A stretch of 64,000 nt of DNA from an uncultured Myxococcales bacterium. GTDB lineage: Bacteria; Myxococcota_A; UBA9042. Made by a program: the position numbers and the translations under genes. The notes beneath the pieces were generated by a model, which saw nothing but the letters and a program-made list of their open reading frames with translations, was not told where the DNA came from and did no database searches. Where the stretch lies: contig CAIXGW010000063.1 of assembly GCA_903919145.1 (NCBI GenBank), positions 8,253 to 72,252 of the forward strand, given 5' to 3'. This document shows positions 2,882 to 34,620 of the stretch, one piece after another. Every line of letters starts with the position of its first letter. Position 1 is the first letter of the stretch.

Positions 2882-2900
2882 CTTGCCCTCTTTGCCGCCT

Positions 2901-5660
2901 TCAAGACTGCGGCACGCGATCGATCTGGCCAAACCAGCCCTTGCGCTCCATCCACTTGGCCAGCTCCAGGACGGGGATGACCGAGGCGGCGGCGGCGGTG
3001 GTGGCGACCCACTCCAGCGGTGTCAGGTCGCTCAGGCCAAACACCTCCTGCAGGGCGGGAATATGCAACAACGCCATCATCAAAACCAATTCCCAGCCCA
3101 CCGCCAGGTTGAGCCAGCGGTTGGCAAAGGGCCTGACAAAAGTAGACAGCCGGTCAGAGCGGAACGAATAAGCCTTGAAGAACTGCACCAGCACCAGCGA
3201 GAGAAAAGCCATGGTCATGGCATGTTGCAGACCGTGGCCGCGGCTGAGGGCCCAGTAGAACAGGCCCAGGTTGACCAGCGTGGACCACAGGCCGCCGGTC
3301 AGCATCAGCGTGACCACCGGCCGGGTAAAGATGCCTTGCTTGGGATCGCGCGGCGGCCGCTGCATCAGGTCGGGCTCGGGCGGATCCAGGGCCAGGGCCA
3401 GCGCCGGCAGGCCATCGGTGGCCAGGTTGACATATAACAACTGGACAGCTGACAAAGGCAACGGCCAGCCGAGCAGGCTCGCCACCGTCATCAGCCCCAT
3501 CTCGCCAATGTTGGAAGACAGCAGATACATCAGGTATTTCTTGATATTGCCATAGATCGCTCGGCCTTCCTCCACCGCCGCCACGATCGACGCAAAGTTG
3601 TCATCGGTCAGGGTCATCGCCGCGGCTTCTTTGGAGACGTCGGTGCCGGTGATGCCCATGGCGATGCCGATGTCGGCTTTCTTGAGCGCTGGCGCATCGT
3701 TGACGCCGTCGCCGGTCATCGCCACCACCGCGCCGCGCTGCTGCAGGGCCTGCACCACCCGCAGCTTGTCGGCCGGCGAGACGCGGGCAAAGACCTCAAT
3801 GGTATGAACTTTTTCTGCCAGCTCCTGGTCGCTCAGCGCCGCCAGCTCTGGGCCGGCCATCACCTCGCCTTGGCGCAGCAGGCCCAGCTCGCGCGCCACG
3901 GCTTGCGCAGTCAGGGGATGGTCGCCGGTGATCATCACCACCCGCACCCCCGCTTCGTGGCACAGGGCAATCGCCGCCTTGGCCTCGGCGCGCGGCGGGT
4001 CGAGCATGCCCACCAGGCCCAGCAACGTCAGGTCGCAGTGGATGTTGTCGCGGGTGGCCTGCTCTCTGCGCACGATCGCCAGAACCCGCAGCGCCTGCAA
4101 GGCCATCTGCTTGGCACCGCTCAGGATGCGCTGGCGGTCGTGGTCGGTAAGCGGCAGCAGCTGCCCGTCGACGCCCAGGGCCTGGGTACACTGCGGCAGC
4201 AGCATCTCTGGCGCGCCCTTGATGCAGGCAAAGCGCCCGGCTGGCCCGTCGTGAAAGGTGGTCATCCGCTTGGATTCAGAGGTGAAGGGGATCTCATCGA
4301 CCCGCGGCGAATCCTGATGAACCTTGGCCTTTTCGATTCCCGCCTTGCCCGCCGCGACCAGCAGAGCGCCTTCGGTCGGATCGCCGTGCAGCTGATCCTG
4401 GCCACCGGCCTCGCCAGGCTCAAAGCGCGCATCAGAGGCCAGCACCGCCGCCGTCAGCAGCGCCTCCAGCTGCTCACTGGCCACTACGGCTTGGCCATCC
4501 AAAAGGAATTCGCCCTCTGCGCCATAGCCGGCGCCGGTCACTTGCAGCTCGGTGCCGTGCATCAGGATCGCCCGCACCGTCATCTCATCGCGGGTCAGCG
4601 TGCCGGTCTTGTCAGAACAAATCACCGAGGTGCTGCCCAGGGTTTCCGCCGCCGCCAGGCGCCGCACCAGCGCGTTGCGCTTGACCAGCCGCTGTACGCC
4701 AATCGCCAGCGAGATCGTCACCACCGCCGGCAGCGCCTCAGGCACCACCGCCACCGCCAGGGCAATGCCAAAGATCAGCAGCTCGGTCAGCGGCTGGCCG
4801 CGCCACAGCCCCAGCAGCACGATGCCGGCCACCAGCACCAGGGCAGCGCGCACCAGCTGCTTGCCCACCCGGTCCAGGCTGGTCTGCAGCGGCGTCTGGT
4901 TCTGCACCACTTCGCCAAGCATCCCTGCAATCTTGCCAAGCTCTGTGTCCAGCCCGGTCGCCGATACCACCGCCCGGCCGCGGCCATAGGTCACCGCCGT
5001 GGCGGCGTGCACCATGTTGCGGCGGTCGCCCAGGGGCAGCCCAGAGCCCAGCGGTTGACTGTGCTTCTCTGCCGGCACCGACTCGCCGGTCAGCGCCGCC
5101 TCTTCGGCTTGCAGATTGACCGACTCCAGCAGCCGGCAGTCCGCGGGCACCCGATCGCCAGCGGCCAGCAGCACCACGTCGCCGGGCACCAGCTCGCGGG
5201 CGGGCAGGCGCATTTCGCGGCCGTCGCGCAGCACCGTCGCCAGGGGGGCCGCCATCTCGCGCAGCGACTCAAGAGAGCGCTCTGCTCTAAATTCCTGAAT
5301 GAACCCAAGGATTACTGCGAATACGATGATCGCCGTGATCGCCACCGCTTCGGCCGTGTGCCCCAGGGCGATCGACAGGGCCACCGCCACCATCAGCACG
5401 ATCAGCAACACGTTCTTGAACTGGGCCGCCAGCACCGCCCAGGCCGAAACCCGCTGGGCCGTGGCGAGCTCGTTCCAGCCGTAGCGAAGGCGGCGCTGTT
5501 CCACCTCGGCGGTCGTCAGGCCCTCAGGGCGCGACTGCAATTGCTGCAAGGCAGCGTCTACCGACAGAGAGTGGGGCGGCAGGAGCGGAGGCAGCTCGGG
5601 ACCAGCCGGGGCTCTTGCAGCAACAGGTTGAGAGGCCACGGGATTCTCCTTGTGCAACAC
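2901..5660 (-). CDS. Cation-transporting P-type ATPase (P2-type, Ca2+/Mg2+-like)
   Basis: 919 aa. It carries the phosphorylation motif CSDKTGTLT, the TGES actuator motif, PEALP in TM4, and the hinge MTGDGVNDAPALKKADIGIAMG. About 10 TM segments. Confidence 0.9.
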   Translation of the reverse strand: MLHKENPVASQPVAARAPAGPELPPLLPPHSLSVDAALQQLQSRPEGLTTAEVEQRRLRYGWNELATAQRVSAWAVLAAQFKNVLLIVLMVAVALSIALGHTAEAVAITAIIVFAVILGFIQEFRAERSLESLREMAAPLATVLRDGREMRLPARELVPGDVVLLAAGDRVPADCRLLESVNLQAEEAALTGESVPAEKHSQPLGSGLPLGDRRNMVHAATAVTYGRGRAVVSATGLDTELGKIAGMLGEVVQNQTPLQTSLDRVGKQLVRAALVLVAGIVLLGLWRGQPLTELLIFGIALAVAVVPEALPAVVTISLAIGVQRLVKRNALVRRLAAAETLGSTSVICSDKTGTLTRDEMTVRAILMHGTELQVTGAGYGAEGEFLLDGQAVVASEQLEALLTAAVLASDARFEPGEAGGQDQLHGDPTEGALLVAAGKAGIEKAKVHQDSPRVDEIPFTSESKRMTTFHDGPAGRFACIKGAPEMLLPQCTQALGVDGQLLPLTDHDRQRILSGAKQMALQALRVLAIVRREQATRDNIHCDLTLLGLVGMLDPPRAEAKAAIALCHEAGVRVVMITGDHPLTAQAVARELGLLRQGEVMAGPELAALSDQELAEKVHTIEVFARVSPADKLRVVQALQQRGAVVAMTGDGVNDAPALKKADIGIAMGITGTDVSKEAAAMTLTDDNFASIVAAVEEGRAIYGNIKKYLMYLLSSNIGEMGLMTVASLLGWPLPLSAVQLLYVNLATDGLPALALALDPPEPDLMQRPPRDPKQGIFTRPVVTLMLTGGLWSTLVNLGLFYWALSRGHGLQHAMTMAFLSLVLVQFFKAYSFRSDRLSTFVRPFANRWLNLAVGWELVLMMALLHIPALQEVFGLSDLTPLEWVATTAAAASVIPVLELAKWMERKGWFGQIDRVPQS

Positions 5661-16086: not shown

Positions 16087-16647
16087 ATGTCTCATCTTGC
16101 ATCACGCCGGCGGCTTGTTGTGCGCCGACCCTTGTCGACCCAGGCCCGTGGCACCACAAGGTGGCCACTGCTGCTGCTTGGCGCGCTGGGTCTGGGCTGT
16201 ACGCTCGAGAATCCCCAGCAGTCCTGGGCACCTGTGCAGCGCTCATCTTTTGAGTGCGCCGTGCAGCCCATTCTGGCCAAAGAGTGCTCGATGCCAGCCT
16301 GCCATGGCAACACTGCCAGGCGCCTGCAGGTTTTGGCTCCTGGTCGCATGCGCATCGCCGCCGAGATGGTCAAGGCCCTGGCCAGCCAGCCCCCAGAGGA
16401 CCGCCAAGCCGGCTACCACCCGCAGCTGACGGCGGCCGAGATCGACTTCAATTTTGCTCAAGCACGGAGCATGGTTGTGCCTGGCCAGCCGGTGGCCGAC
16501 AGCCCCCTTCTCAACCGCCCCCTCGCCGTCAGCGCTGGCGGCATGTACCACGCGGCCGGCGGCGACATCTTCACCAGCGCCATGGACCTGGACTATGTGA
16601 CGCTGCAGGTATGGCTCGAAGGGGCAGGGCCGGAGATGTGCAAATGA
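16087..16647 (+). CDS. Lipoprotein with a PSCyt1-like motif (..VQPILAKECSMPACHG..)
   Basis: Signal peptide with lipobox LGLGC. F..C..P.L...C....CHG resembles the planctomycete-cytochrome-type domain, but the spacing is C-x4-CH rather than the canonical CXXCH, so heme binding is unproven. Confidence 0.5.
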   Translation: MSHLASRRRLVVRRPLSTQARGTTRWPLLLLGALGLGCTLENPQQSWAPVQRSSFECAVQPILAKECSMPACHGNTARRLQVLAPGRMRIAAEMVKALASQPPEDRQAGYHPQLTAAEIDFNFAQARSMVVPGQPVADSPLLNRPLAVSAGGMYHAAGGDIFTSAMDLDYVTLQVWLEGAGPEMCK

Positions 16648-17618
16648 AGGCTCGCCGCGCGCTGCAACGTGGGTCGGCGAACCCGCGGCCCATGGCGGGT
16701 CACCAGGCCAAGCTGCTGGTATTGCTGGCCGCCGCCCCCTGGCTGTGCGGCTTCTCTTCGGTGTCGATGTTTGAGGCGGCGGCCGACCACGGCGGCGGAG
16801 GCGGCTATACTTTTGTTGGATCGCCCACTTCTCATGACCTGGACTGCACCAGCTGCCACCAGGGCAGCACCGCTGGCGGCCAACTGGCGCTGGCCAGCGA
16901 CCCACCGGGCTTGTTTGAGCGCGGCTTTGTACCGGGCACCACCTACGCCATCTTGGTGCGCCTGGTCGCCGAAGTCCGCGGCCTGGACCGCAACGGCACC
17001 TGCCAGCCCGACGCAGGCGGCTGCAACCGCAACGGGTTCGTCGCTGAGTTCTTGGGAGGCAACCACCAGCCCGCAGGTCAGCTGTGCAGCGATACCGGGC
17101 AGCTGAGCGAACAGGGCTGCGACAGCGACTCGGGCGCTGAGACCACGCTGTTCACCGGCGGCCGGGCCGTCAGCGGGGTGTCGCTGCAGCAACCTCAGGC
17201 CTGTGGCGGCAACTTGACCAGCGATTGCATAGATATTCAAGCATTGATCCAGGCTGGAAAGACCCAAGACGAAATTAATCAGCTGCTTCTTGCTAGTGTA
17301 AAAGGCCGGACATCCTGGCATTTTTTGTGGAAAGCTCCCCTGACCACCACCGCTGTGGCCTTTCACCTCGGCGCGGTGGACGGCGACGGCGGCACCCAGG
17401 TCACCCCAGAGCACAACGACTACTTTGGCGACGCCACCTATTCTGTTCACCGCACGCTGTACCCCGAAGGGATGGCCCCAGCCGACCAGCAGGCCGCTTG
17501 CGGCGCCTCGCCCGTGGGCAGCCCCAGCAGCGCCCACGCCGGGGCCCTTCTCGCCGCCGCCACTGCCTGGCTGGCGCGCATCTTCCGCCGTCGCTCGCGC
17601 CAGGAGGCCAACCCATGA
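16644..17618 (+). CDS. Secreted CXXCH (putative heme c) protein with a MYXO-CTERM-like C-terminus
   Basis: ATGA overlap with the upstream gene and GGAG 8 nt upstream. Signal peptide. One CTSCH heme motif. The C-terminus runs ..ACGASPVGSPSSAHAGALLAAATAWLARIFRRRSRQ: Cys, then a small-residue stretch, then a hydrophobic helix, then Arg-rich. Confidence 0.6.
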   Translation: MKARRALQRGSANPRPMAGHQAKLLVLLAAAPWLCGFSSVSMFEAAADHGGGGGYTFVGSPTSHDLDCTSCHQGSTAGGQLALASDPPGLFERGFVPGTTYAILVRLVAEVRGLDRNGTCQPDAGGCNRNGFVAEFLGGNHQPAGQLCSDTGQLSEQGCDSDSGAETTLFTGGRAVSGVSLQQPQACGGNLTSDCIDIQALIQAGKTQDEINQLLLASVKGRTSWHFLWKAPLTTTAVAFHLGAVDGDGGTQVTPEHNDYFGDATYSVHRTLYPEGMAPADQQAACGASPVGSPSSAHAGALLAAATAWLARIFRRRSRQEANP

Positions 17619-18814
17619 CCGCGGCAAGCCAACCTAGGCCCCCTCGCCGGCCCAAGCTAGCCAGCTTGCTCGTCAGCTTTGTGGCCGTAGCCATGGGGCT
17701 TTCTGCGGTGGCTCAGGCCGTCGAGCCGACTTCTTGCGACATCAAGACCGGCCCTTCTTGCGCATGGAAGGAGGGCTGCGACTGCGACCACGACGGCTAC
17801 GTGATCGGCAGTGGCAAAGCGTCAAAATACTGCCATTTTCCCAAGTGCCCCATCGACTCCGATGACAAAGACCCCAAGAAGCTGGGCATTGTCTCAGCGG
17901 AAAACGCCGACGGCGACGGCTGGACCAAGGCCTACGACTGCAACGACACCGACAAATGCATCGGCAAGACCTGCGGCGTCAGCACCTGCGGCAGTGCGCC
18001 CGTCGATCCAGATGCCGATCAAGACGGCTTTGCCGCCAGCCTAGACTGCAATGACAAAGACCCCAACATCAAGCCGGGCTCGCCCGTCGCCTGCTGCAAC
18101 TGCGCAAATCTGAACGATCCCGACAAGGTCAAAGCGCTCGGCTGCAGCGGTTGTCCGCTCAGCCTGTCGCCGCCAGACGCGGGCTCGACCGACGCCGGCA
18201 GCGCTGACGCCGGATCGACGGGCCCCGACTCTCTCCAATTCGATGCCGCCGCGGATCCCGGCGACGGATCTGGCGATTCCGCCGGCCCTGACGTCGCCAC
18301 TGCAGATCTGGCCAGTCCAGAGCCCGGCAAGGCCGACGCCGGCAAGCCAGACACCGCCGCCCCGGCGCCCGGCGCCGCCGACTCCGCCGCCGCCAGCCCA
18401 GGCCCACTGACGGACGCCGGCAGCGCCTTTGACCCGCAGGGTGGCTTGCTGGTGGGCAGCCGCAGCGACGAGCGCCTGCCGCCTCCCCCTCCCGGCTGCA
18501 GCGCCGGAGCGCAGGGCCAGGCCCATTCTGCATGGTTGGCAGCGCTGTGGCTGATCGCGCTGGTCGCCTGGCGCGCCATGCAGCGGTCGCAGCGCCGCAG
18601 CGTGGCTGCGACCGCGGCGGTCCTGGCAGCGGCGGCGGTCTCGGCAGGGGCTTGCGTGCGCGTGGAGCCCTGGCAGCGCCAGAAGCTGGCCCACCGCTGC
18701 ATGGTTCTGGGCCGCAACGCCGGCGAAAAAGACCTGGAGCAACACGCCTTTCAGTACAGAGAGGGCTCGGCCGGCGGCTTTGGCGGCGGCGGTGGAGGCT
18801 GCGGTTGCAACTGA
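17615..18814 (+). CDS. Cys/Asp-rich secreted protein (TSP3-like DxDxDG motifs). An internal MYXO-CTERM-like segment is fused in frame to a DUF4266-like lipoprotein module
   Basis: ATGA overlap with the upstream gene and CAGGAGG 7 nt upstream. Signal peptide. The segment ..PPPPGCSAGAQGQAHSAWLAALWLIALVAWRAMQRSQRRS is followed without a stop by VAATAAVLAAAAVSAGAC..GGGGGGCGCN. I verified by hand that the frame between 18482 and 18814 has no stop. Confidence 0.55.
   Translation: MTAASQPRPPRRPKLASLLVSFVAVAMGLSAVAQAVEPTSCDIKTGPSCAWKEGCDCDHDGYVIGSGKASKYCHFPKCPIDSDDKDPKKLGIVSAENADGDGWTKAYDCNDTDKCIGKTCGVSTCGSAPVDPDADQDGFAASLDCNDKDPNIKPGSPVACCNCANLNDPDKVKALGCSGCPLSLSPPDAGSTDAGSADAGSTGPDSLQFDAAADPGDGSGDSAGPDVATADLASPEPGKADAGKPDTAAPAPGAADSAAASPGPLTDAGSAFDPQGGLLVGSRSDERLPPPPPGCSAGAQGQAHSAWLAALWLIALVAWRAMQRSQRRSVAATAAVLAAAAVSAGACVRVEPWQRQKLAHRCMVLGRNAGEKDLEQHAFQYREGSAGGFGGGGGGCGCN
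18578..18814 (+). CDS. Possible independently initiated DUF4266-like lipoprotein (78 aa) nested in frame in the previous CDS
   Basis: The ATG at 18578 gives MQRSQRRS-VAATAAVLAAAAVSAGAC (signal peptide plus lipobox-like AGAC), then ..VEPWQRQKLAHRCMVLG..HAFQYREGSAGGFGGGGGGCGCN*. From memory, the GCGCN ending and the pairing with a DUF3570 barrel protein are typical of DUF4266. No clear SD. Confidence 0.35.
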   Translation: MQRSQRRSVAATAAVLAAAAVSAGACVRVEPWQRQKLAHRCMVLGRNAGEKDLEQHAFQYREGSAGGFGGGGGGCGCN

Positions 18815-20124
18815 TCAGCGAGAAATATCGCCAGCCCATCCGCTCGCTGGCAGCGCTGCTGGCGGCGCTGTTGCCGTTGGTGGCGGCCCCAGGCGCAGCC
18901 GAGCCGGTCGCCCGCCCCGCCAAGAGGCTGGCCCACCCGCGCCCCAGCCGGTCGCGGCTGGCTCGGCTACGCCCGAGCACGGTGGGCGCAGCGCGGCCGG
19001 CCAGCTCCGCCGCTGAGGCAGCCGAGGTTCCCTTAGGCCAGTTGGCCTCTGATCTTGTGGTAGAATTTGTTCCGGCAGCGCAAGAACCACTGCCTACCGC
19101 TGCGCCTACCCCTGCCGGCGTCAGCGCAGAGACCCGCACCAACTACTACTTTGACAACGACCACAACCGCATCGTGACCCCCACCGTCCGCGTCGCCGCC
19201 GATCTAGGCGAGCGCTGGGCCGTCGCTGCCCATGCCGCGGTCGACATGATGACCTGCGCCTCGGTCGATGTGGTGAGTGCGGCGACTTCCAAGGGCTATT
19301 TCCAAGAAAACCGCCAGGAGTACGGCGCCTCGGTCACGGCCAAGCAAGAGCAGCTCAACATCACCCTGGGCGCCAGCCACTCGCAAGAGAATGACTACGC
19401 CTCGGCAACGGGGTCCATTGCAGTCAGCGACGAATTTGCCAAGCGAAATACAACACTATCTCTGGCCTACAGCTTTACCGGCTCTGACGTCGGCCGCGCC
19501 CACGACCCCACCTTTGTCCGCAGCCTAGACAGCCATGCCCTGACCGCCTCTTGGACGCAGGTGCTCGGCCGCGCCTGGGTCGGCCAGCTCAGCGGTTTTG
19601 TTGGCGTGCTCGACGGCTTTCAGTCCAGCGTCTACCGCTTTGTCCACTATGCCGACGGCACCTCTGGCCCCGAGGTGGCGCCCGATCTGCGCGTCCGCCA
19701 AGCCGTCGCCGCCGAGGTGCGCGGCGCCCTCAGCCAGACCTGGTTCAGCGGCGCCAGCTACCGCCTGTACAGCGACACCTGGGGCGTGCTTTCTCACACT
19801 GGCGAGGTAACGCTTTCGCACGCCCCGACCGACTGGCTGAATCTGCGGCTGCGCGACCGCGTTTATACCCAGCGCGGCGCCGGCTTCTACCAGGCCGTCT
19901 ATGACAAGCCCATGCGCTACAGAACGATTGATCGAGAACTCGGCACCATGTATGGCAATCTGATCGGAGTCAAGGCGGCCATCGACCTCGGCAGCCCCGC
20001 CAGCACCAGCAGCTGGCAGCTGGACCTCAAGTACGACTGGATGTGGCAGCACTTTGACGATTTCCGCTGGCTCCCAGAACGAACAATGTCAATGATTGAG
20101 GCGGGATTGCAGTACACATTTTGA
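18805..20124 (+). CDS. DUF3570-like predicted outer-membrane beta-barrel protein
   Basis: TTG at 18805, 6 nt after GGTGGAGG, overlapping the upstream stop (TTGCAACTGA). Signal peptide IRSLAALLAALLPLVAAPGAA. Alternating amphipathic strands, and a C-terminal ..GLQYTF typical of OM barrels. Confidence 0.55.
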   Translation: MQLISEKYRQPIRSLAALLAALLPLVAAPGAAEPVARPAKRLAHPRPSRSRLARLRPSTVGAARPASSAAEAAEVPLGQLASDLVVEFVPAAQEPLPTAAPTPAGVSAETRTNYYFDNDHNRIVTPTVRVAADLGERWAVAAHAAVDMMTCASVDVVSAATSKGYFQENRQEYGASVTAKQEQLNITLGASHSQENDYASATGSIAVSDEFAKRNTTLSLAYSFTGSDVGRAHDPTFVRSLDSHALTASWTQVLGRAWVGQLSGFVGVLDGFQSSVYRFVHYADGTSGPEVAPDLRVRQAVAAEVRGALSQTWFSGASYRLYSDTWGVLSHTGEVTLSHAPTDWLNLRLRDRVYTQRGAGFYQAVYDKPMRYRTIDRELGTMYGNLIGVKAAIDLGSPASTSSWQLDLKYDWMWQHFDDFRWLPERTMSMIEAGLQYTF

Positions 20125-20224: not shown

Positions 20225-20743
20225 ATGCTTGCTGCGATCCTCTCTGCTGTGGCCTCTTGGCTATTGATGACCCCTGCTGCAGGAGCGCTGCCGCTGGCCG
20301 CGGGCCCGGCCGTCGCCCAGGTGGCTCCGCCGATCAAGGGCGCACTGCTCGATGGCAAAGCCTATGATCTGGCAGCGATGCGCGGCCAAGTGGTGCTGGT
20401 CGACTTCTGGGCGACTTGGTGCGAGCCGTGCAAGCTCAGCCTGCCGCGCTACGCCGCCCTGGAGCGCAAGCTGGGCAGTCAGGGCTTTCACATCCTGACG
20501 GTCAGCGTCGATGAAGAGGTCGACGTCCTGAAGCGCTTTGTCGCCGCCACCAAGCTGGGCCTGCGAGTCTTTCACGACCCCGAGTCCAAGGTGGCAGAGC
20601 GTTACCAGCCGGCCAAGATGCCCACCGCCTACCTGGTGGGCAAAGACGGCGCCATCACCTGGATCCACTCCAGTTTTGTGGTCGGCGATGAAGCCAAGGT
20701 GGAGGCCGAAGTGCTCAAGGCCCTGGCCAAGCCGGCGCCGTGA
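20225..20743 (+). CDS. TlpA/ResA-like periplasmic thiol-disulfide oxidoreductase (thioredoxin fold)
   Basis: Signal peptide. WCEPC active site in a redoxin-like context (VVLVDFWATWCEPCK). Confidence 0.8.
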   Translation: MLAAILSAVASWLLMTPAAGALPLAAGPAVAQVAPPIKGALLDGKAYDLAAMRGQVVLVDFWATWCEPCKLSLPRYAALERKLGSQGFHILTVSVDEEVDVLKRFVAATKLGLRVFHDPESKVAERYQPAKMPTAYLVGKDGAITWIHSSFVVGDEAKVEAEVLKALAKPAP

Positions 20744-22161
20744 TCCGCTGGCGCGCGCGGTGGCTGGTTGCGCTGGCCCTGGCGCTGCCCGCAGGCTGGG
20801 TCGGGCAGGCTGCCGCGCTTAAGGCGCAGACCGCGCCCGCCGCCGTGCAGGTGCCGCACCCCGAGGGCGGCGGTCGGCCGGCAGTGGCCCACCTGCCCAT
20901 GAACCCAGGTGAAATTGCCGCCGTGTGGCCGGCCGCGCGGCTGTCTGCACCTCAGCGCAAGCAAGCCCAGCTCAAGCTGGTGGCCCTGGTCGGGCCCGCC
21001 GCTGGCTACACCACGGCGCAGCTGGACGCCCTGGCCCGCCAGTTGCTGCTGCAGACGGCGCCACTGGCCATCGCCGCCGTGCCGCAAGAGGTGGACGGTC
21101 TGGTCATCGACGCGGCCAACCACTGGCTGTTTGCCGGGCGAATGCGCGACCGCTTGGCCAACAGCTCGGCAGAGTATCAGCTCTTTCGCGCCCCTATCAT
21201 GAGCACCGCCATCGAAGTGCTGCTGCCCAAGGGCCCCGATGCCCAGCGCCAAGCAGACGGCGTGTTTGGCATTTTTCGCCAATTAGAACAACAGCTTAAT
21301 GAGTGGAAGCCGGGCTCGCCCATCGCGGAGGTCAATCGCCTGGCCGGCAGCGCCGCCGTGCAGGTCGATGCCGACGCCATCGCGCTGCTGAACCAGGCCC
21401 TGGAAGTCAGCAGGCGCACCGGCGGCGCCTTTGACCCGACCTGGGCGGCCCTGTGGGGAGTCTGGGATTTCTCTGACCACAGCCAGGGCCTTGTGCCCGA
21501 TCCCGCTGAGATCGCCAGGCGAATCCCCCTCATTGACTACCGCAAGGTGGTGGTGAACCCGCAGGCCTCCACCGTTGCGCTGCCCGTCGCCGGCATGAAG
21601 CTGGGCCTGGGCGGCATCGCCAAGGGTTGGGCGCTGGCCCGCGCCGGCCGCTGGCTGAAAGAGCAGGGCGCACCCAGCTTTTCGCTGTCAGCCGGCGGCC
21701 AGGTGCTGGTCGGTGGTCGGCATGGGGCTCGACCGTGGCGGGTCGGGCTGCGCCATCCGCGCGGTGCCCCGCAGGCGGTGCTGGCAGTGCTCGACCTGAG
21801 CGACGCCTCCATCTCGACCAGTGGCGACTACGAGCATTACTTTGAGCGCAACGGCGTGCGCTACCACCACATCATTGACCCGCACACTGGCCAGCCGACG
21901 CGGGGCCTGCAAAGCGCATCGGTAGTGGCCGCCGATGCCACCCTGGCCGACGCGCTGTCTACCGCGCTGATGGTCCTGGGCCGCCAGCGGGCCCTGGCGC
22001 TGGTCGCCGCTTGGCCTGGCGTCGAATGCGCCCTGGTCGACGATGCAGGGCGCCTGTGGCTCAGCAAGGGCCTGCAGGGCAAGGTGACGCCAGTGCCCTC
22101 AGCCAGCGCGGTCAAACCGGGCAAAGTGCATAGAGAAGCTGGCGCGCCCCTGGGTCTGTGA
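20740..22161 (+). CDS. apbE: ApbE-family FAD:protein FMN transferase
   Basis: GTG overlapping the tlpA stop (GTGA). N-terminal signal peptide. GGIAKGWALARA, FDPTWAALWG and SGDYE..RYHHIIDPHTGQP match ApbE motifs. There is a roughly 130 aa N-terminal extension. Confidence 0.8.
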   Translation: MIRWRARWLVALALALPAGWVGQAAALKAQTAPAAVQVPHPEGGGRPAVAHLPMNPGEIAAVWPAARLSAPQRKQAQLKLVALVGPAAGYTTAQLDALARQLLLQTAPLAIAAVPQEVDGLVIDAANHWLFAGRMRDRLANSSAEYQLFRAPIMSTAIEVLLPKGPDAQRQADGVFGIFRQLEQQLNEWKPGSPIAEVNRLAGSAAVQVDADAIALLNQALEVSRRTGGAFDPTWAALWGVWDFSDHSQGLVPDPAEIARRIPLIDYRKVVVNPQASTVALPVAGMKLGLGGIAKGWALARAGRWLKEQGAPSFSLSAGGQVLVGGRHGARPWRVGLRHPRGAPQAVLAVLDLSDASISTSGDYEHYFERNGVRYHHIIDPHTGQPTRGLQSASVVAADATLADALSTALMVLGRQRALALVAAWPGVECALVDDAGRLWLSKGLQGKVTPVPSASAVKPGKVHREAGAPLGL

Positions 22162-27317: not shown

Positions 27318-28304
27318 CTACTGCGGCAGCGTCCTGACACAGCGAAAGCCAATGTACTCTACGCGCACCGGCGGCCCATAGGCGCTGCGGAACGCATGGC
27401 TGGCCTCGCCGCTGCCGTAGCGAAAGTTGCCGCCGCGAAAGACCCGGTTGTCGCCAGCTTTGGGGCCCACGGGGTCGGCCACGGCTTGGCTGGGGTACTC
27501 GCCCTGCCAGTCCCACACCCACTCGCCGGCGTTACCAAGCATGTCAAACAAACCAAACGCATTAGCAAGCTTGCCTTTGACGGCGTGGGGCTTTAGCTCT
27601 GAGTTCTCATCAAACCAAGCGTAATCTATAATGTTCTTTGGCGCCTGTTCGGTCGAACCGCCGCGAGAGGCGTACTCCCATTCGGCCTCGGTGGGCAGCC
27701 GATAGCCGGTGCACGCCAGCCCCTCGGGCCAGGCGACCGCAAAGCCGTCGATGCGATAACACTGCGCCAAGCCTTGTCTTTTAGACAGGTCGTTGCAGTA
27801 CGTCGCCGCCTGGTACCAAGACACCATGGCCGCCGGGCACTGCTGGCAGGGGCTGAGCTGATCCCCAGAAGTTGACATCAATTCGCCGTATTGCTTAACG
27901 GTCACCTCGGTGGACATCATCTCAAACGGCCGGGTAATCACCACCTGGTGCAGCTGGGCATCGTTGTAGCCGGGCCCGGCCTGCTCGGCGCTCAGCCCCA
28001 TGGCAAACTGGCCCGGCGCCACCGCGACAAAACCTGGGGTCAGCGTCGCCTTGATGCGCTGCAATTCTGAGTCTTTGCGTTGGGGCTCCTCAGGCTTGGC
28101 CAGGGGAAGGGCTGCGGCCTTCTGGCTGTCTGCAGGGACGGCGACGGCAGCGCCCGGGGCCAGCGCGGCACCCTCCTGCGGCGCGGCTTGCGCGCGGTCC
28201 GCGGCAGTCGGCTTGCATGCGACCGCCACCGCACCAATGACCAGCGCCCAGACCGCCGCTTGCGAGCCAAGGCCAAGGTTCAGTCTGGCCAATTCTCTAC
28301 CCAT
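27318..28304 (-). CDS. Formylglycine-generating-enzyme (SUMF1/FGE-sulfatase) family lipoprotein
   Basis: Lipobox AVAVACKP. C-terminal ..GNAGEWVWDW..RVFRGGNF..RSAYG..IGFRCV is the FGE-sulfatase fold signature. Confidence 0.8.
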   Translation of the reverse strand: MGRELARLNLGLGSQAAVWALVIGAVAVACKPTAADRAQAAPQEGAALAPGAAVAVPADSQKAAALPLAKPEEPQRKDSELQRIKATLTPGFVAVAPGQFAMGLSAEQAGPGYNDAQLHQVVITRPFEMMSTEVTVKQYGELMSTSGDQLSPCQQCPAAMVSWYQAATYCNDLSKRQGLAQCYRIDGFAVAWPEGLACTGYRLPTEAEWEYASRGGSTEQAPKNIIDYAWFDENSELKPHAVKGKLANAFGLFDMLGNAGEWVWDWQGEYPSQAVADPVGPKAGDNRVFRGGNFRYGSGEASHAFRSAYGPPVRVEYIGFRCVRTLPQ

Positions 28305-30897
28305 GTTTGCTCCTGCGCCTGGCCCACCAACCGGCGACCAACCCTAAGACGGACCACAGGCCGCGGCGATCCGCGCCAAAACCCGCCGCACAGCCGCTGT
28401 CTGCTGGCAGGCGGGCAGGCGCTGGCCTAGCGGCGCCATCCTTGCTATTTATCAATTTGTCATTTAGCAAATTGTCAGCCAGCGAGTCCTGCCCAGCTGC
28501 TGGCACATCGCCAACTGCCGCAGAGAGTTCGCCAGCATCGCTCCCCGCTGCAGCATCGCTCCCCGCGGGTACGTCGGCCAGCGCCACGCCGTCGCCTTCG
28601 CCGTCGAGCGCCAGCGCAACCTCAAGGTCTGCGGCTGTGGCGTCGCCGCCGCCGGCATCCGGTCCGGGGTCAGCGACCACGGCGGTGCCCGCTTGCAGGC
28701 AGGCCTCCAGGTCGTCGTCCATCGCCGCGCCGCCCAGGGCCAGGACTGCGGCGCCGGCGCCAAAGCCCATCATCGGCACCGCGCCGGCAAACTGGCCCGC
28801 CGCAGCGCCAGAGGTACCCAGCAGCTCGGGGACGATGCCACCGCCTTGCTGGGCGACCTCCAGCACCCGCTGGCGCAGGGCATCGCGGTGCGCCTGCAGC
28901 GGGGCCCCGGCGTCCACGGCCCTGTCTAGCCAGCGCAGGACCCGCAGGTCAATAAACAGCCACTCTTGACTGTCGTACTCGCCGCCGTCGTCATTGCGAA
29001 AAAAGCCCGGGCCGCCCCCCGCCGCCAGCTTGGCCAGCCAGGCTGCCCAGGAGGCCTGCGCCACCGCGCCCCACGGCGGCAACTGCCCGTCCAGAAAAGC
29101 TTCTACCGCGGCAAGGTCATGGGCCTGGCCCGGGGCTTCCTCCAGATTGCCGCGCAGATAGCTCTTTCCATCTGAAAGCTTGGTCTGGATAGCTTGATGC
29201 AGCGCTTTGGCATCTGCGCGGTACTGCCCAGCCAGCTTGCCTTCTCCGGCCCAGGTGGCCAGCTGAGCCGCTGCGCACAGGCCGCGCACGGCCGCTATGG
29301 AGGTGTAGGCAAAGTGCTTTTGCTGGCCGTTCCAGTGCACCTCCCAGATCGACGAGTCGGGCTTGACCAGCCCGGTGGCGTCCACCGATTTTCGCAGCGG
29401 CTCTGCGATCAGGTCGCGCAGGACCGGCCACCACTGCGCCAAAAACTCGCTGTCGGCCGAGGCCTGCAGATACCTGCCGGCCTGCCACAGCACCAGACCA
29501 AAACCGTCCAGCTCGATGTTGGGGCCAAACTCATTGATATCGCTTTCTTCTGTGCCACCGCCCCAGTAGCGGGTGACCGACACCCGGTACGGACCGCCGA
29601 CCTCTGCCTGGTACTGACCCGCCTTGCCGCGCAGCACAAACTCCAGCGCCGCCTTGGCCATGTCCAGCCGTCCGGCAGCTGCCAGAGCCACCCCGGCGTA
29701 GGCCTGGTCGCGCGGCCAGGTGATATTCCACTGGCCTGGAGGCAGGCTGGCCACGATCTGCCCGCGCGGCGCCAGCCCGGTGCCGGCGCCATCCTGCGGC
29801 CCGCTGGCATTGGGCTGGCGGCTCTGGGCCATCCGCAGCAACATCAAAGAGCGCCGATACAGCAGCAGCGCTTCGCCGGCCAGCCCCGCGGGCTCTTTCG
29901 CTTGCGCGTGCCAGGACTGCCACCAGGCCAGCTCGTCAGCCAGCAGCTGCTGCGGCGTCCGGCCCTGCAGAAACTGGTCGCTCTGGGCCGCCAGCACCGC
30001 CGCTGAGGCGCCCGCTTGGTACAGCGCCAGCGCCGCCACCGCCGCCTTTTGCCCAGGGGCCAGCTGAATCTGCCAGAGCATGCCGGCCACGCGGTCGGCA
30101 CCAACGCCGCTGTCGGCCTGGCCACCCAGGGGCTGCGCCTTGACAAACTTGTTGAAGGGATTGACTGTTTCAAGAGAGATGGGGGTCTGAGCACTGGTCG
30201 CGGTGGCGCTGTGGGCCAGCCCGTCTACGGCTTGCAGCCAAACGCGGTGGTCCGACGCCGGGCTGGACTCCAGCAGCGATCGCACCCCGGTGGCCACCAG
30301 CTGCTCTGGCTCGCTGGCGGGCTGCGGCGCACCGGCGCCCAGGTGGGCATTAAAAAGCAGAGATACTTCAATGGTTTTGGCGGAATCGCTCTGGTTATGC
30401 ACCTCTGCCATCAGCACCACGCCGCGCCCCTGCAGGGTCTGCGGCACCCACACCATGGTCTGAAGTGTTACTTTACCATTGACATCCCAACTGCGCTTTT
30501 CAGCTATCACTCCGGCCGATTCAGGGTAACCCAATACGGCCGAACTGGCGGTGCACACCTGGCCGACCGCGCAGCCCTGCAGCGGCAGCCCCGGCGCCCA
30601 GACGCCCGCAGCTCCCGGCGTGCGCAGGCCAAAGTAGGCGTCATGCAAGACATCTTGGGTCGGCTGGCCGGCCACCAGCGCTTGGTAGGGCTGCAGCCAC
30701 AGGTCTTGCAGCCGCCCTTTGGCGTGGTCAAACACCGCGATCGCCAAGCCATTGCCGGCCACGCGCAGCGCAAACGGCTTGGCGGCGGGCAGGGCGGCAC
30801 CGGCCCCGGAAGCCCCAGCGGCGATCGCCAGGGCCCCCACAGCAGCCGCGGCGACCCACCGCACGCAATGACCGCGGCGAAAAGCTACCTTGGGCAT
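28297..30897 (-). CDS. GH15-like ((alpha/alpha)6 glucoamylase/glucodextranase-type) glycoside hydrolase with a MYXO-CTERM-like tail
   Basis: ATG at 30895-30897 with GGAGG 7 nt upstream. Signal peptide. WPRDQAYAGVALAAAGR is the GH15 W-x-RD motif. The C-terminus DSGCAAGFGADRRGLWSVLGLVAGWWARRRSKHG follows the MYXO-CTERM pattern. An 8 bp overlap with the FGE gene implies an operon. Confidence 0.65.
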   Translation of the reverse strand: MPKVAFRRGHCVRWVAAAAVGALAIAAGASGAGAALPAAKPFALRVAGNGLAIAVFDHAKGRLQDLWLQPYQALVAGQPTQDVLHDAYFGLRTPGAAGVWAPGLPLQGCAVGQVCTASSAVLGYPESAGVIAEKRSWDVNGKVTLQTMVWVPQTLQGRGVVLMAEVHNQSDSAKTIEVSLLFNAHLGAGAPQPASEPEQLVATGVRSLLESSPASDHRVWLQAVDGLAHSATATSAQTPISLETVNPFNKFVKAQPLGGQADSGVGADRVAGMLWQIQLAPGQKAAVAALALYQAGASAAVLAAQSDQFLQGRTPQQLLADELAWWQSWHAQAKEPAGLAGEALLLYRRSLMLLRMAQSRQPNASGPQDGAGTGLAPRGQIVASLPPGQWNITWPRDQAYAGVALAAAGRLDMAKAALEFVLRGKAGQYQAEVGGPYRVSVTRYWGGGTEESDINEFGPNIELDGFGLVLWQAGRYLQASADSEFLAQWWPVLRDLIAEPLRKSVDATGLVKPDSSIWEVHWNGQQKHFAYTSIAAVRGLCAAAQLATWAGEGKLAGQYRADAKALHQAIQTKLSDGKSYLRGNLEEAPGQAHDLAAVEAFLDGQLPPWGAVAQASWAAWLAKLAAGGGPGFFRNDDGGEYDSQEWLFIDLRVLRWLDRAVDAGAPLQAHRDALRQRVLEVAQQGGGIVPELLGTSGAAAGQFAGAVPMMGFGAGAAVLALGGAAMDDDLEACLQAGTAVVADPGPDAGGGDATAADLEVALALDGEGDGVALADVPAGSDAAAGSDAGELSAAVGDVPAAGQDSLADNLLNDKLINSKDGAARPAPARLPADSGCAAGFGADRRGLWSVLGLVAGWWARRRSKHG

Positions 30898-31769
30898 GGC
30901 TTTACCTCCGCCAAGGGGCAGCGCTGCCAGGTGACTTTGCCGTCCACCCTGGTCAGGTAGCGAATCTCGGCGTAGCCCGCCGCCGCTACCGCCGCCACGC
31001 AAGCCTGCAGCCCACCGCCAACGTCTTGCGGAGCATGGCTATCGTCGCCCAGCGTCACAGCTATCCCCATGCGCCGGGCCTGGTCCAGCACATCGGGCAG
31101 CGGGTAGACCGGACCCAGGCCGCGCCGCACCGGAGCCGCGTTGACATCGATCACGCTGCCCGCCGCTTCAATGGACTGCAACGCCCGCTGCAGCGCTGGC
31201 CAGGCCTCGGGCCGGATCTGCGGTGTCGGACCGTCAAACTTGCGAATCAGGTCCAGGTGACCCACAACCTCGGGCCGCAGCACCTGCACCAGCTCGGCCA
31301 CGGCTTCAAAGTAGTGGATCTGCAAAGCCGCCGGTCCGCCCAGGTCGCGGGCCAGCTGCGCCGTTGTCTCTGCGGCAAAATCAATGCAGATGCCGTTGAC
31401 GTGGTGGACGCTGCCCACCAGGTAATCCAGCTGGCACTGGCTGCGCAGGTCGGTCATTGCCGTAGCCCAGCTTTCGGGCGGCAACCGCTCGGTCTCCATG
31501 CCCACCAGCACTTCCATGCGCCCCTGCCACTGCAGCTGCAGCGCGCGGGCCTCGCTCACAAAGGCGTAAAACATCTCGAGCAGTTGGTCGGGCCGCAGCC
31601 CTTGCTCCTCTGGAAACAGGTCCTGGGGGCGAAAGCGCGGCGCGTGCTCAGAGAGGCCGTAGTGGCTAAAGCCGCGGGCGTAGGCGGCCTGCAGCACGTC
31701 GGCCAGATTGCCGTGGGCGTGCAGGCAGTAGCGACCGCTGTGCCCCCCGTGATAGCTGCACCAAGCCAT
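30885..31769 (-). CDS. PHP-domain phosphoesterase, HisJ-type histidinol-phosphatase family
   Basis: ATG at 31767-31769. MAWCSYHGGHSGRYCLHAHG..FSHYGLSEHAPR parallels HisJ (DGHTHTEFCPHG..IVEHAPL). The tool ORF begins 129 codons earlier in a low-quality region. Confidence 0.7.
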   Translation of the reverse strand: MAWCSYHGGHSGRYCLHAHGNLADVLQAAYARGFSHYGLSEHAPRFRPQDLFPEEQGLRPDQLLEMFYAFVSEARALQLQWQGRMEVLVGMETERLPPESWATAMTDLRSQCQLDYLVGSVHHVNGICIDFAAETTAQLARDLGGPAALQIHYFEAVAELVQVLRPEVVGHLDLIRKFDGPTPQIRPEAWPALQRALQSIEAAGSVIDVNAAPVRRGLGPVYPLPDVLDQARRMGIAVTLGDDSHAPQDVGGGLQACVAAVAAAGYAEIRYLTRVDGKVTWQRCPLAEVKPCPR

Positions 31770-32506: not shown

Positions 32507-32836
32507 ATGGACGAGCTGATGTTCCGCCAATACACCGACCGCCTCTACCGCGCGGTGCTGCAGCGCCTGGACCGCGAAGATCCCGATGTCATTGAAGGGG
32601 AGCTGTCGGCCGGGGTCGTCAAGATCCGCAATGCCGCCGGCCAGATCTATGTGCTGAACCACCAGGTGCCGGTCAGCGAGATCTGGTATGCCGCGGGCGA
32701 CCGCGCCTGGCACTTCCAGCACCAGACCGATGGGCACTGGCTGGACCCGCGCAACGGCGAAGAGCTGGCCGCCGTCCTGGGCCAGACCCTGAGCCGACTC
32801 GCCGGCATTCCGCTGGAGTTTGACATCCCGCAGTAG
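32507..32836 (+). CDS. cyaY: Frataxin homolog CyaY (iron-sulfur cluster assembly)
   Basis: ATG at 32507, 8 nt after AGGAG. MDELMFRQYTDRLYRAVLQRLD..IYVLNHQVPVSEIWYAAGDRAWHF..GHWLDPRNGEEL matches the CyaY/frataxin fold sequence. Confidence 0.8.
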   Translation: MDELMFRQYTDRLYRAVLQRLDREDPDVIEGELSAGVVKIRNAAGQIYVLNHQVPVSEIWYAAGDRAWHFQHQTDGHWLDPRNGEELAAVLGQTLSRLAGIPLEFDIPQ

Positions 32837-32976
32837 CGGCCAAGGCGCTCCGCTGCAGGGATCCGTTGGCACCCGCCGGGCTTTTCGCTATGCTGCGGCC
32901 AATGAACACGCCACACCCTACGAAATCACTAGAAAACTACCGCCATCCGTCGCGAGCTCGGCGTCGCGCCTTTCCC

Positions 32977-34620
32977 ATGGCGCTGGTGGCGGCCAGCTTG
33001 GCAGCGGCGCTGGTGGCCGGGCCAGCGCTGGCCTTCTCGGTCGACGTGCACCGCTGGCTGACCGAGCGGGCGCTGCGCGGCGTGGTGCCGATTGGGGCGC
33101 TGATGACGCCAACCGAAGACCAGTACATGGGGTTTTGGCTGTGGTTTGGCAAGGCTATGGCCTCGCCCTCGGTCAGCGCCGAGCTCGACGGGCCGGACCC
33201 CAAGCGCTTCACCACCCGCTACACCAGCCCTCGCTCTTTTGACGCCTTTGCGATCCGCGGTTTCTTGGGGCTCTCTCAAGAGCCAACGCCGGCCGTGCTG
33301 GGCTTGGAGACTTTTGACCGCGACGGCGAGGTCGATCGCTTCAACGCGATGGTGCGCGGCTCGGCCCAGCCCGACATCGACCGGCGCAACCAGAATCGCT
33401 TTGCCTATGACGAACGGCGCAATCCGCTGCTGGCCCCCGACGGCCGGCGCGTGCCCGCCGACCCAACTGCGCTGAACATGGGCGCAGCCTCGGGAATTGC
33501 CAGCCAGGCCCACGCCCACTACCAGCTGGCGGCCGACAAGCCCAGTGACGACCCAGAAGTGCTCAAGACTGAGCCCTGGAACTTTGCCGTGCGGCTGGGC
33601 TTTGACGGGCCGGTCGAGACTTCGGCCGCCGACATGGCGCAGATGCACCTGGACATGGCGATTGTGATGCGCGCTTGGGTCGATGAGCAGCAGGGCGCTG
33701 TCAGCGACTACATGCCAATTCTATGGGCGTCTGCGGGCTTGCACTACGTTCAGGATGCGGCGGGCCAGCTGCACACCGTGCAAGTCGGCGCCTATGACGT
33801 GTTTGTCCGCGCCAAGCTGATGTGGTACCTGCACGGTCTGCGCACCGCCGGCGGCTACTTGGCGCCTCTGCCGACCTTCACCTCGATCGGCGCCGACCTG
33901 CTGCGCAATTTGCACTTTCTGGCAGAGGCGTGGATGGCCGACCAGCTGGACCGCGCGCGCCTTGGCAAACCGCTGGAGCCGGCGATCCAAAAAGCCTGGG
34001 CAGCTCTTGATAAGCCAGAGCGTTTTGAGCCCGACCCGCAACTTGTGGCCGCCTTGGGCAAACAGCTGGAGCCACACTTGGCCGACCCGTTCAAAGTGCA
34101 GCCGTGGCAAGACGGGCAGGGTGCTGCCTCGATCCTGGTGCACACGCTGGCCAAAATCGGCAGCCGCGAAGGGGCGGCGATCTATCAGGCCGCCCTGGAC
34201 ATGGCCGACGGCGAGCTGCTGCAAGTGGGCTACAAGCTCGATGACAGCCTACCCTTGCAGCCGCGCCACCTGGCCAGCGGAGACACGGCGGCGGCCGCCG
34301 TGCAGGCCATGGCCCAGCTGCAGGCCAAGAGCGTCACCCGGACCCTGACCGCGACCCGGCTTTACTGGCAGGCCTACGAGCAGGGCAACGCCGACTCGGC
34401 CGCCAGGCGCCTGCGTCGCAATGCCCTGAACCGGCTAGACAAACAGCAGCGACTGCAGAAAGAGTGGCTGGCCGCTGCCGGCCGCAGCGCCGGAGCCGCC
34501 AAGCTGGACAATGGCAGCGAGCAGCGCCCTGAGTTCTTGGCGGCCGAGCTGGCGGCCGGGCTTGGGGCCGCTGGGCTGGCGGCATGGGCGTGGCGGCGGC
34601 GCCGCAAGGGGGCTATATGA
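32977..34620 (+). CDS. Secreted protein with a zinc-dependent phospholipase C/P1-nuclease-like N-terminus and a hydrophobic, Arg-rich C-terminal anchor
   Basis: Signal peptide MALVAASLAAALVAGPALA. The mature N-terminus FSVDVHRWLTERAL resembles the PLC start SHLWIVNRAI. The C-terminus ends ..LGAAGLAAWAWRRRRKGAI. Confidence 0.45.
   Translation: MALVAASLAAALVAGPALAFSVDVHRWLTERALRGVVPIGALMTPTEDQYMGFWLWFGKAMASPSVSAELDGPDPKRFTTRYTSPRSFDAFAIRGFLGLSQEPTPAVLGLETFDRDGEVDRFNAMVRGSAQPDIDRRNQNRFAYDERRNPLLAPDGRRVPADPTALNMGAASGIASQAHAHYQLAADKPSDDPEVLKTEPWNFAVRLGFDGPVETSAADMAQMHLDMAIVMRAWVDEQQGAVSDYMPILWASAGLHYVQDAAGQLHTVQVGAYDVFVRAKLMWYLHGLRTAGGYLAPLPTFTSIGADLLRNLHFLAEAWMADQLDRARLGKPLEPAIQKAWAALDKPERFEPDPQLVAALGKQLEPHLADPFKVQPWQDGQGAASILVHTLAKIGSREGAAIYQAALDMADGELLQVGYKLDDSLPLQPRHLASGDTAAAAVQAMAQLQAKSVTRTLTATRLYWQAYEQGNADSAARRLRRNALNRLDKQQRLQKEWLAAAGRSAGAAKLDNGSEQRPEFLAAELAAGLGAAGLAAWAWRRRRKGAI

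Follow-up and report, generated by a model that had tools for sequence, protein, structure and literature searches.

A conserved transmembrane hairpin with sorting-tail-like and lipoprotein-like signals joins DUF4266 in frame to upstream secreted domains

How can one bacterial reading frame contain both a sorting tail, which is defined as a C-terminal signal, and a lipoprotein signal, which is defined as an N-terminal one? The question is raised by a gene at positions 17615 to 18814 (plus strand) of a 64,000-nucleotide stretch of DNA, called here the window, from an uncultured Myxococcales bacterium (assembly GCA_903919145.1, contig CAIXGW010000063.1). Both signals are internal to this gene, share a single Arg cluster, and lie in a stop-free open reading frame (ORF) of 399 amino acids (aa) that runs from a signal peptide through a DUF4266 module. 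The original prediction made for this locus had offered three explanations, namely a stop codon lost through mutation or assembly error, a real fusion, or a second start at ATG 18578 within the same frame; every feature that it had quoted for this region is present in the sequence. We find that the arrangement is conserved across dozens of diverged proteins with three domain architectures. The parts of the ORF are the following.

17615 to 18814, plus strand: the fused ORF, comprising in order a signal peptide, a Cys/Asp-rich domain, a linker, a hairpin and DUF4266.
17615 to 17719, plus strand: Sec-type signal peptide, aa 1-35, read from the sequence, with predicted cleavage between ..AVAQA and VEP.
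17720 to 18169, plus strand: Cys/Asp-rich ("C") domain, aa 36-185, with 16 Cys and 22 Asp in its 150 aa.
18170 to 18478, plus strand: variable low-complexity linker rich in D, A, P and G, with many indels among homologues and AlphaFold2 (AF2) confidence (pLDDT) below 50.
18479 to 18601, plus strand: internal MYXO-CTERM-like tripartite tail, made up of PPPPPGC, a small-residue stretch with the first transmembrane segment (TM1, helix aa 303-319), and an Arg loop.
18602 to 18655, plus strand: lipoprotein-type h-region VAATAAVLAAAAVSAGA and lipobox Cys347 (codon 18653-18655), forming a transmembrane (TM) hairpin with the tail.
18653 to 18814, plus strand: predicted mature DUF4266 lipopeptide of 53 aa, CVRVEPWQRQ...GGGGGGCGCN, and the stop codon; Pfam PF14086, E=1.5e-17, with 755 relatives.

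Translation of this ORF would begin at ATG 17615, which is preceded at 7 nucleotides (nt) by AGGAGG and overlaps the stop codon of the upstream gene (ATGA). The Cys of PPPPPGC is Cys295 (codon 18497-18499), followed by SAGAQGQAHS-AWLAALWLIALVAW; the Arg loop RAMQRSQRRS (18572-18601) contains Met322, encoded by ATG 18578; and Cys347 lies 52 aa beyond Cys295. The ORF ends with ...GGFGGGGGGCGCN and a stop codon at 18812-18814. The DUF4266 assignment, which had been proposed from this ending, holds in Pfam, where PF14086 matches with 64.6 bits (cutoff 27) over its full profile (1-50 of 50, aa 350-399). The C-terminal CXC feature of the family (PMC8238504) is present, with C396, G397, C398 and N399 invariant in our alignment. 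Members of this family carry their own N-terminal signal peptide; here, the signal-like segment is internal, at aa 320-347 of 399.

The fused frame is not peculiar to this contig. The identical 399-aa protein, with the same neighbouring genes, occurs in at least three other assemblies (ERZ1426635, ERZ18634362 and ERZ27313213), and 18 further homologues of 327-656 aa came up in a database search at 37-56% identity, all of them with PF14086 at the C-terminus (18/18). The alignment of these proteins shows no variation at P291, P293, C295 and C347 or across most of DUF4266, and the many indels in the linker leave the frame intact. Five loci from Myxococcota metagenome-assembled genomes (MAGs), found via DUF3570, are likewise all fused. 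A word-indexed protein search with the N-terminal domain alone missed even the database copy of this very protein and gave no matches; we treat it as a false negative and put no trust in negative results of this search for short Cys/Asp-rich queries. We used in its place a scan of metagenome DNA with an alignment of this domain, in which 8 of the 11 loci found read through to CGCN and the stop codon. Altogether, the open frame and the features of the hairpin are kept across 14 distinct DNA loci. All of the fused proteins that we looked up are unnamed or called "hypothetical protein" in the databases.

These observations bear directly on the two explanations that would do without a fusion. Long open frames are common in a GC-rich, stop-poor genome, and MAG assemblies may hold errors (in one locus, L021, a run of N broke the gene calls), so that a stop codon after ..RRS could have been lost from this contig by a sequencing or assembly error or by a recent mutation. 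We regard this explanation as refuted and give it next to no weight, because independent assemblies contain this very protein and because its homologues, close and distant alike, are fused in frame; the hairpin is moreover shared by other architectures. A start at ATG 18578 or an equivalent codon, which would yield DUF4266 as a nested gene alongside the long product, has in its favour that the window ATG stands exactly where a plausible signal peptide begins (MQRSQRRSVAAT..AGAC), and that 11 of the 14 fused loci have some in-frame ATG, GTG or TTG within the Arg loop or three codons to either side of it. However, Met322 is unique to the window sequence in the alignment with the 18 homologues, three loci (L004, L012 and L019) lack any candidate start in this interval, and none of the 15 candidate starts across the 14 loci has a Shine-Dalgarno (SD) core 3-12 nt upstream, whereas such a core precedes the fused ORF itself (AGGAGG) and, in 11/14 loci, the downstream DUF3570 gene (GGAGG). 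Internal initiation is unsupported on these grounds and would in addition not explain why the upstream frame is kept open in every lineage; we consider it improbable. That the fused gene is conserved in freshwater Myxococcota as a genuine translational fusion, rather than an error or two nested genes, is strongly supported by these sequence comparisons, so that of the three explanations originally offered it is the real fusion that stands.

The hairpin that connects the two parts is found in other proteins as well. A full-library search with the DUF4266 module gave the 755 relatives, and the best 150 of these were mostly pre-lipoproteins that stand alone, 64-116 aa long and with an ordinary signal peptide, together with about 15-20 long or fused proteins, truncated calls counted. 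The same connecting element occurs in three fused architectures: the C domain with DUF4266, a CxxCH-containing "B" domain with DUF4266, and B, C and DUF4266 together. The B domain of the second type (P0033, P0077, P0095, P0097, P0128 and P0130) is homologous to the window gene directly upstream of the fused ORF (16644..17618), and these fusions, which come from other lineages, adjoin a gene for DUF2271, the other novel ApbE substrate (loci L019, 2604-3485, and L020, 691-1611); in L019, DUF3570 and a thioredoxin are encoded divergently upstream of the fusion. The triple fusions (P0012, P0022 and P0045; L011) are arranged as B, tail, signal peptide, C, hairpin and DUF4266, with the junction from tail to signal peptide present twice per ORF. 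We counted a protein as a B-C fusion only where homology continued in frame, as in these three; how far an ORF reaches back to the preceding stop was not accepted as a criterion, since at this GC content frames often stay open by chance. The DUF4266 modules (52 aa) are too short for a neighbour-joining tree of them to decide the number of independent fusion events.

Two DUF4266 genes of 96-97 aa (P0020 and P0023) had the appearance of a "hairpin-only" form, a separate gene starting before TM1, and were rejected as truncated calls of fused ORFs, one broken by a run of N and the other running off the contig edge. For P0020 (97 aa; L021, about 2700-3260), it was the run of N that broke the calls; the ORF behind it is a C-DUF4266 fusion, and the recorded start is an internal Met just after PPPGC.

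In the 31 fused proteins that we parsed, the hairpin has a constant order of Cys, TM segment, Arg loop, TM segment and lipobox Cys, with the two Cys separated by 36-57 aa (median 47). The loop holds 2-8 Arg or Lys residues in 31/31 and can be reduced to a bare RRR, and the second hydrophobic run spans 10-21 residues. With a loop this short, a single basic cluster must serve both signals, which bears out the earlier proposal that the Arg-rich tail doubles as the n-region of the second signal. An AF2 model built from a 19-sequence alignment, poor overall (pLDDT 52.5) and usable for aa 130-180 and the hairpin, places two helices in the hairpin region, at residues 303-323 and 329-344.

The first half of the hairpin resembles the MYXO-CTERM sorting tail. 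MYXO-CTERM (TIGR03901.2) was the best NCBIfam model for 9 of 10 excised tails (9.1-26.9 bits), two of which reached its cutoff of 20 bits (P0004, 20.1; P0028, 26.9). The tripartite design of these signals is present, with the invariant C295, an uncharged TM1 and the basic cluster found in all of the parsed proteins, as is the Myxococcota host: the closest loci are from Myxococcota MAGs, and the window itself encodes two true terminal tails. One of these belongs to the upstream B gene and scores 18.9 bits against MYXO-CTERM; the other belongs to a 913-aa glucoamylase-like protein at 28297..31038 (minus strand; C-terminus ..DSGCAAGFGADRRGLWSVLGLVAGWWARRRSKHG) and scores 16.2 bits, which shows such tails in use at real C-termini in this organism. 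The real terminal tails of this genome thus score in the same range as the internal ones, which fits the remark that the MYXO-CTERM model needs lineage-specific rebuilding (Haft 2023 preprint). We built a hidden Markov model (HMM) on 25 true terminal B-family tails; it matched the tail position in 19/19 C-family proteins (1.4-26.7 bits), with 15/19 scoring above the shuffled maximum of 7.8 bits.

Unfused relatives of the C domain also exist. In three loci (L013, 1424-2188; L016, 2575-3348; and L017), the C domain and its Cys-TM-basic tail are followed directly by a stop codon, showing that this family also uses the tail as a genuine C-terminal signal. A stop after the tail, for which a comparison of orthologous loci had been proposed, is therefore found in these relatives but not in the 18 homologues or in 8 of the 11 metagenome loci. 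The three loci are lower in GC, and their unfused C gene lies between ApbE and a TlpA-like gene whose 312-aa product has a TM extension at its C-terminus; DUF4266 was not visible on their short contigs.

The internal tail shares with MYXO-CTERM (TIGR03901), the signal of the myxosortase MrtX system, the Gly-Cys signature, the charge-free TM helix, the Arg cluster, the Myxococcota host and the disordered linker that precedes it, and differs from it in its internal position, its sub-cutoff score, its single Cys, and a signature of PPxPGC rather than GCGC. MrtX cleaves MYXO-CTERM in a Cys-dependent manner, even with a C-terminal FLAG placed after the tail, and Lgt is proposed as the leading candidate for lipidation of the tail Cys, in an "inverted topology" as compared with the lipobox (Guo, Haft, Wall 2025, PMC11980579). 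JDVT-CTERM (NF033191) was listed for one of the 10 excised tails (10.2 bits, E 0.55, cutoff 27) and was rejected as a candidate; the DP motif that is near-invariant nine residues after its Cys has no conserved counterpart in our alignment. In some Proteobacteria, JDVT-CTERM proteins are encoded beside DUF4266, DUF3570 and TlpA, with which they probably act as partners after sorting (Haft 2023 preprint, section "The JDVT-CTERM system"). The likeness to the present case is that a protein with a Cys-containing tripartite tail partners a DUF4266/DUF3570/TlpA system; there, however, the genes are separate and the phyla are others, and the window tail lacks the DP motif.

A further open frame in the window, read from stop to stop at 32824..34620 (plus strand; 598 codons), ends in ..AAGLGAAGLAAWAWRRRRKGAI with a TM segment and an Arg cluster but without a Cys, and may represent another type of tail; it had no NCBIfam match.

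The second half of the hairpin has all the parts of a lipoprotein signal: a positively charged n-region (RAMQRSQRRS), an h-region (VAATAAVLAAAAVS) and a lipobox (AGAC) that conforms to [LVA][ASTG][GAS]C. It had been called a perfect lipoprotein signal, and it does fall within the profile of its family, but its lipobox has Ala rather than Leu at position -3. The signal is internal to the precursor and preceded by TM1, and we take its topology (N-in, C-out) to be equivalent to that of an N-terminal one. Position -1 is Gly, Ala or Ser in 36/36 fused as compared with 105/107 standalone DUF4266 proteins; these residues make up only 39% of the h-region. The two groups share the same preferences elsewhere (-3 L/A/V; -2 S/G/T/A; +2 A/V). 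Such a kept profile suggests that recognition by Lgt and LspA has been maintained, rather than a mere anchor. The fused module thus resembles standalone DUF4266 (PF14086) in its full profile, its terminal CGCN (CXC), its lipobox Cys and profile, and in the DUF3570, TlpA-like and ApbE genes downstream. The standalone proteins, however, are 64-116 aa long and have their own start codon, whereas the fused signal has none, continues a 329-aa upstream protein and uses the Arg-rich tail of that protein as its n-region.

What would such a protein be for? We think it fairly probable, judging from sequence features, that the fused protein serves as a polyprotein-like precursor, with LspA and probably also a myxosortase as the cutting enzymes. 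The protein would be exported by its N-terminal signal peptide until the MYXO-CTERM-like segment, with its invariant PxPGC and TM1, stops transfer and anchors it. The one Arg cluster would stay in the cytoplasm, acting at once as basic anchor for the tail and as n-region for the signal that follows, and the second hydrophobic segment would re-enter the membrane and export the 53-aa DUF4266 module, producing a hairpin whose two periplasmic ends each bear an invariant Cys. Cys347 would most likely be diacylglyceryl-modified by Lgt and cut by LspA, freeing an ordinary small DUF4266 lipoprotein, probably outer-membrane bound because of the Val at +2, to join the DUF3570/TlpA-like/ApbE flavin-thiol redox system encoded just downstream. 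The Cys/Asp-rich domain would remain tail-anchored and would probably, in the manner of the MYXO-CTERM pathway, be lipidated at Cys295 and trimmed by a putative CPBP-type myxosortase. A single precursor would thereby give two lipid-anchored partners in a 1:1 ratio and a discarded hairpin of about 50 aa; as speculation, the fusion would guarantee that a very small protein is made 1:1 with its partner and targeted along with it. The topology, the two cleavages, the two lipidations and the final localisation are all predicted here.

In its fullest form, which we put forward tentatively as somewhat less than an even prospect, this model describes a TM hairpin with mirror-image lipidation and cleavage signals (Cys-TM, cut by a CPBP myxosortase, and TM-lipobox-Cys, cut by LspA) that yields two lipid-anchored partners of a flavin/thiol/heme redox machine in the outer envelope. 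Since the module recurs between different domains, it would, if the dual processing is true, be a reusable and selectable "cut-here-twice" connector.

Several points weigh against processing of this kind. It is deduced from sequence for every member of the family, and the structural model is of the poor quality noted above. The window tail scores 12.2 bits (E 0.19) against the MYXO-CTERM cutoff of 20 and 9.8 bits with the lineage HMM, barely over the shuffled maximum of 7.8; and MYXO-CTERM is defined as a signal near the C-terminus, whereas 70 residues follow the Arg cluster of the window protein. The conserved Cys could instead act as disulfide or metal ligands, with the hairpin kept as a permanent anchor. 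The gene would then still be a real fusion, encoding an uncleaved protein with two TM segments in which the hairpin is a lasting inner-membrane anchor that keeps the Cys/Asp-rich domain and DUF4266 together at the periplasmic side, while the flanking Cys are not lipidated but have a part in redox or metal chemistry. Such a protein would account equally well for the conserved fusion and hairpin, its two Cys-rich parts would suit a thiol-redox operon (PMC8238504), and the internal position of the MYXO-CTERM-like tail, which contradicts the definition of that family, would be of no concern. On the other hand, a lipobox profile identical to that of standalone DUF4266 is needless for a mere TM anchor, and relatives carry the same tail at a true C-terminus. 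Standalone DUF4266 is moreover the rule (108 of 148 classified proteins, about 64-116 aa), so that the module works as a free lipopeptide. We consider a permanent anchor rather unlikely, and prefer the processed precursor.

Viral membrane polyproteins offer a mechanistic parallel to this precursor. In flaviviruses (prM/E/NS1) and alphaviruses (E2-6K-E1), an anchor helix directly precedes the internal signal of the next product, and the resulting hairpin is cut on the luminal side. As in the fused DUF4266 proteins, the C-terminal anchor of one product is followed by the internal signal of the next to form a hairpin; the kingdom and the enzymes differ, and the bacterial cuts are predicted to be coupled to Cys lipidation, making this an analogy of mechanism with no homology.

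Our literature searches turned up no account of a sorting tail fused to a lipoprotein signal, of an internal lipobox or of a lipoprotein polyprotein. Both signals and the gene cluster are known; it is the conserved, in-frame, shared hairpin between different domains that appears to be undescribed. Should the predicted processing take place, then bacterial sorting enzymes can serve as polyprotein-processing proteases. These proteins would then also be a natural substrate for asking whether Lgt lipidates both kinds of Cys, the enzyme that lipidates the tail Cys being a question of the MYXO-CTERM field. The fusion physically ties a CxxCH protein and a Cys/Asp-rich protein, both uncharacterised, to the poorly understood DUF4266/DUF3570/ApbE system of extracytosolic electron transfer. 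For annotation, it means that gene callers and domain rules will mislabel the fused proteins, as with those called as truncated 96-97-aa genes.

Two results went beyond the original prediction: the recurrence of the hairpin in B-DUF4266 and triple fusions, and the identity of the locus, which is the published ApbE/DUF3570 flavinylation system. The genes around the fused ORF are the following.

16087 to 16647, plus strand: gene A, the first of the apparent operon, encoding a small lipoprotein-like product (lipobox ..LLLGALGLGC) with a CSMPACH motif.
16644 to 17618, plus strand: gene B, encoding a secreted CxxCH protein with a C-terminal Cys-TM-RRR tail (..AACGASP..ALLAAATAWLARIFRRRSRQEANP, then stop).
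18794 to 18807, plus strand: GGAGG core (18794-18798) and TTG start (18805-18807) of the DUF3570 gene, inside the DUF4266 codons for Gly-Gly-Gly-Cys-Gly-Cys.
18805 to 20124, plus strand: DUF3570 protein, 439 aa (PF12094, E=2e-27, 96.5 bits).
20225 to 20743, plus strand: TlpA/ResA-like periplasmic thioredoxin with CEPC.
20740 to 22161, plus strand: ApbE FAD:protein FMN transferase (Pfam, E=4.6e-78).

ApbE is known to flavinylate DUF3570, and clusters of ApbE, DUF3570 and thioredoxin-like genes together with DUF4266 have been described (Meheust et al. 2021, PMC8238504); all of these DUF4266-associated genes are present downstream of the fused ORF, in the same order in other assemblies. The barrel gene that had been expected next is indeed the DUF3570 gene, whose TTG start overlaps the fused ORF by 10 nt, in agreement with independent gene calls. 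Its GGAGG stands 6 nt before the start, written in the Gly codons of GGGCGCN, and wherever it is present (11/14 loci) the start at the same position is TTG or GTG, which suggests translational coupling and a dual constraint on these DUF4266 codons. The DUF3570 protein has one canonical [ST]GA[ST] motif (SGAS at aa 315), as well as YGAS at 173 and LGAS at 188, as compared with two canonical flavinylation motifs in the published family (PMC8238504). Its C-terminus, ..EAGLQYTF, resembles the C-terminal signal of outer-membrane beta-barrels.

The C domain of the fused ORF has the invariant motifs TSCD..TG.SC, GCDCDHDGYV, KYCH..KCP, NADGDGWT and YDCDD. Pfam scans of 15 sequences of this domain and a sequence-profile search of the PDB gave no meaningful match to a known family, and a Foldseek search of the PDB with the AF2 model had no significant match: its best was at E=1.7, and thrombospondin type-3-repeat proteins came in at E 7-9.

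Gene B, whose stop codon overlaps the start of the fused ORF, matches the NCBIfam model choice_anch_V below threshold (27 bits, cutoff 42). The CxxCH (at aa 68 in the window copy) and the terminal tail are present in 27/27 homologues (P0168-P0194), and this single invariant motif is a possible heme c attachment site. Gene A had no match in Pfam and NCBIfam scans; its CSMPACH is a CX4CH motif, preceded by ..VQPILAKEC, which we take to resemble planctomycete-type cytochrome domains.

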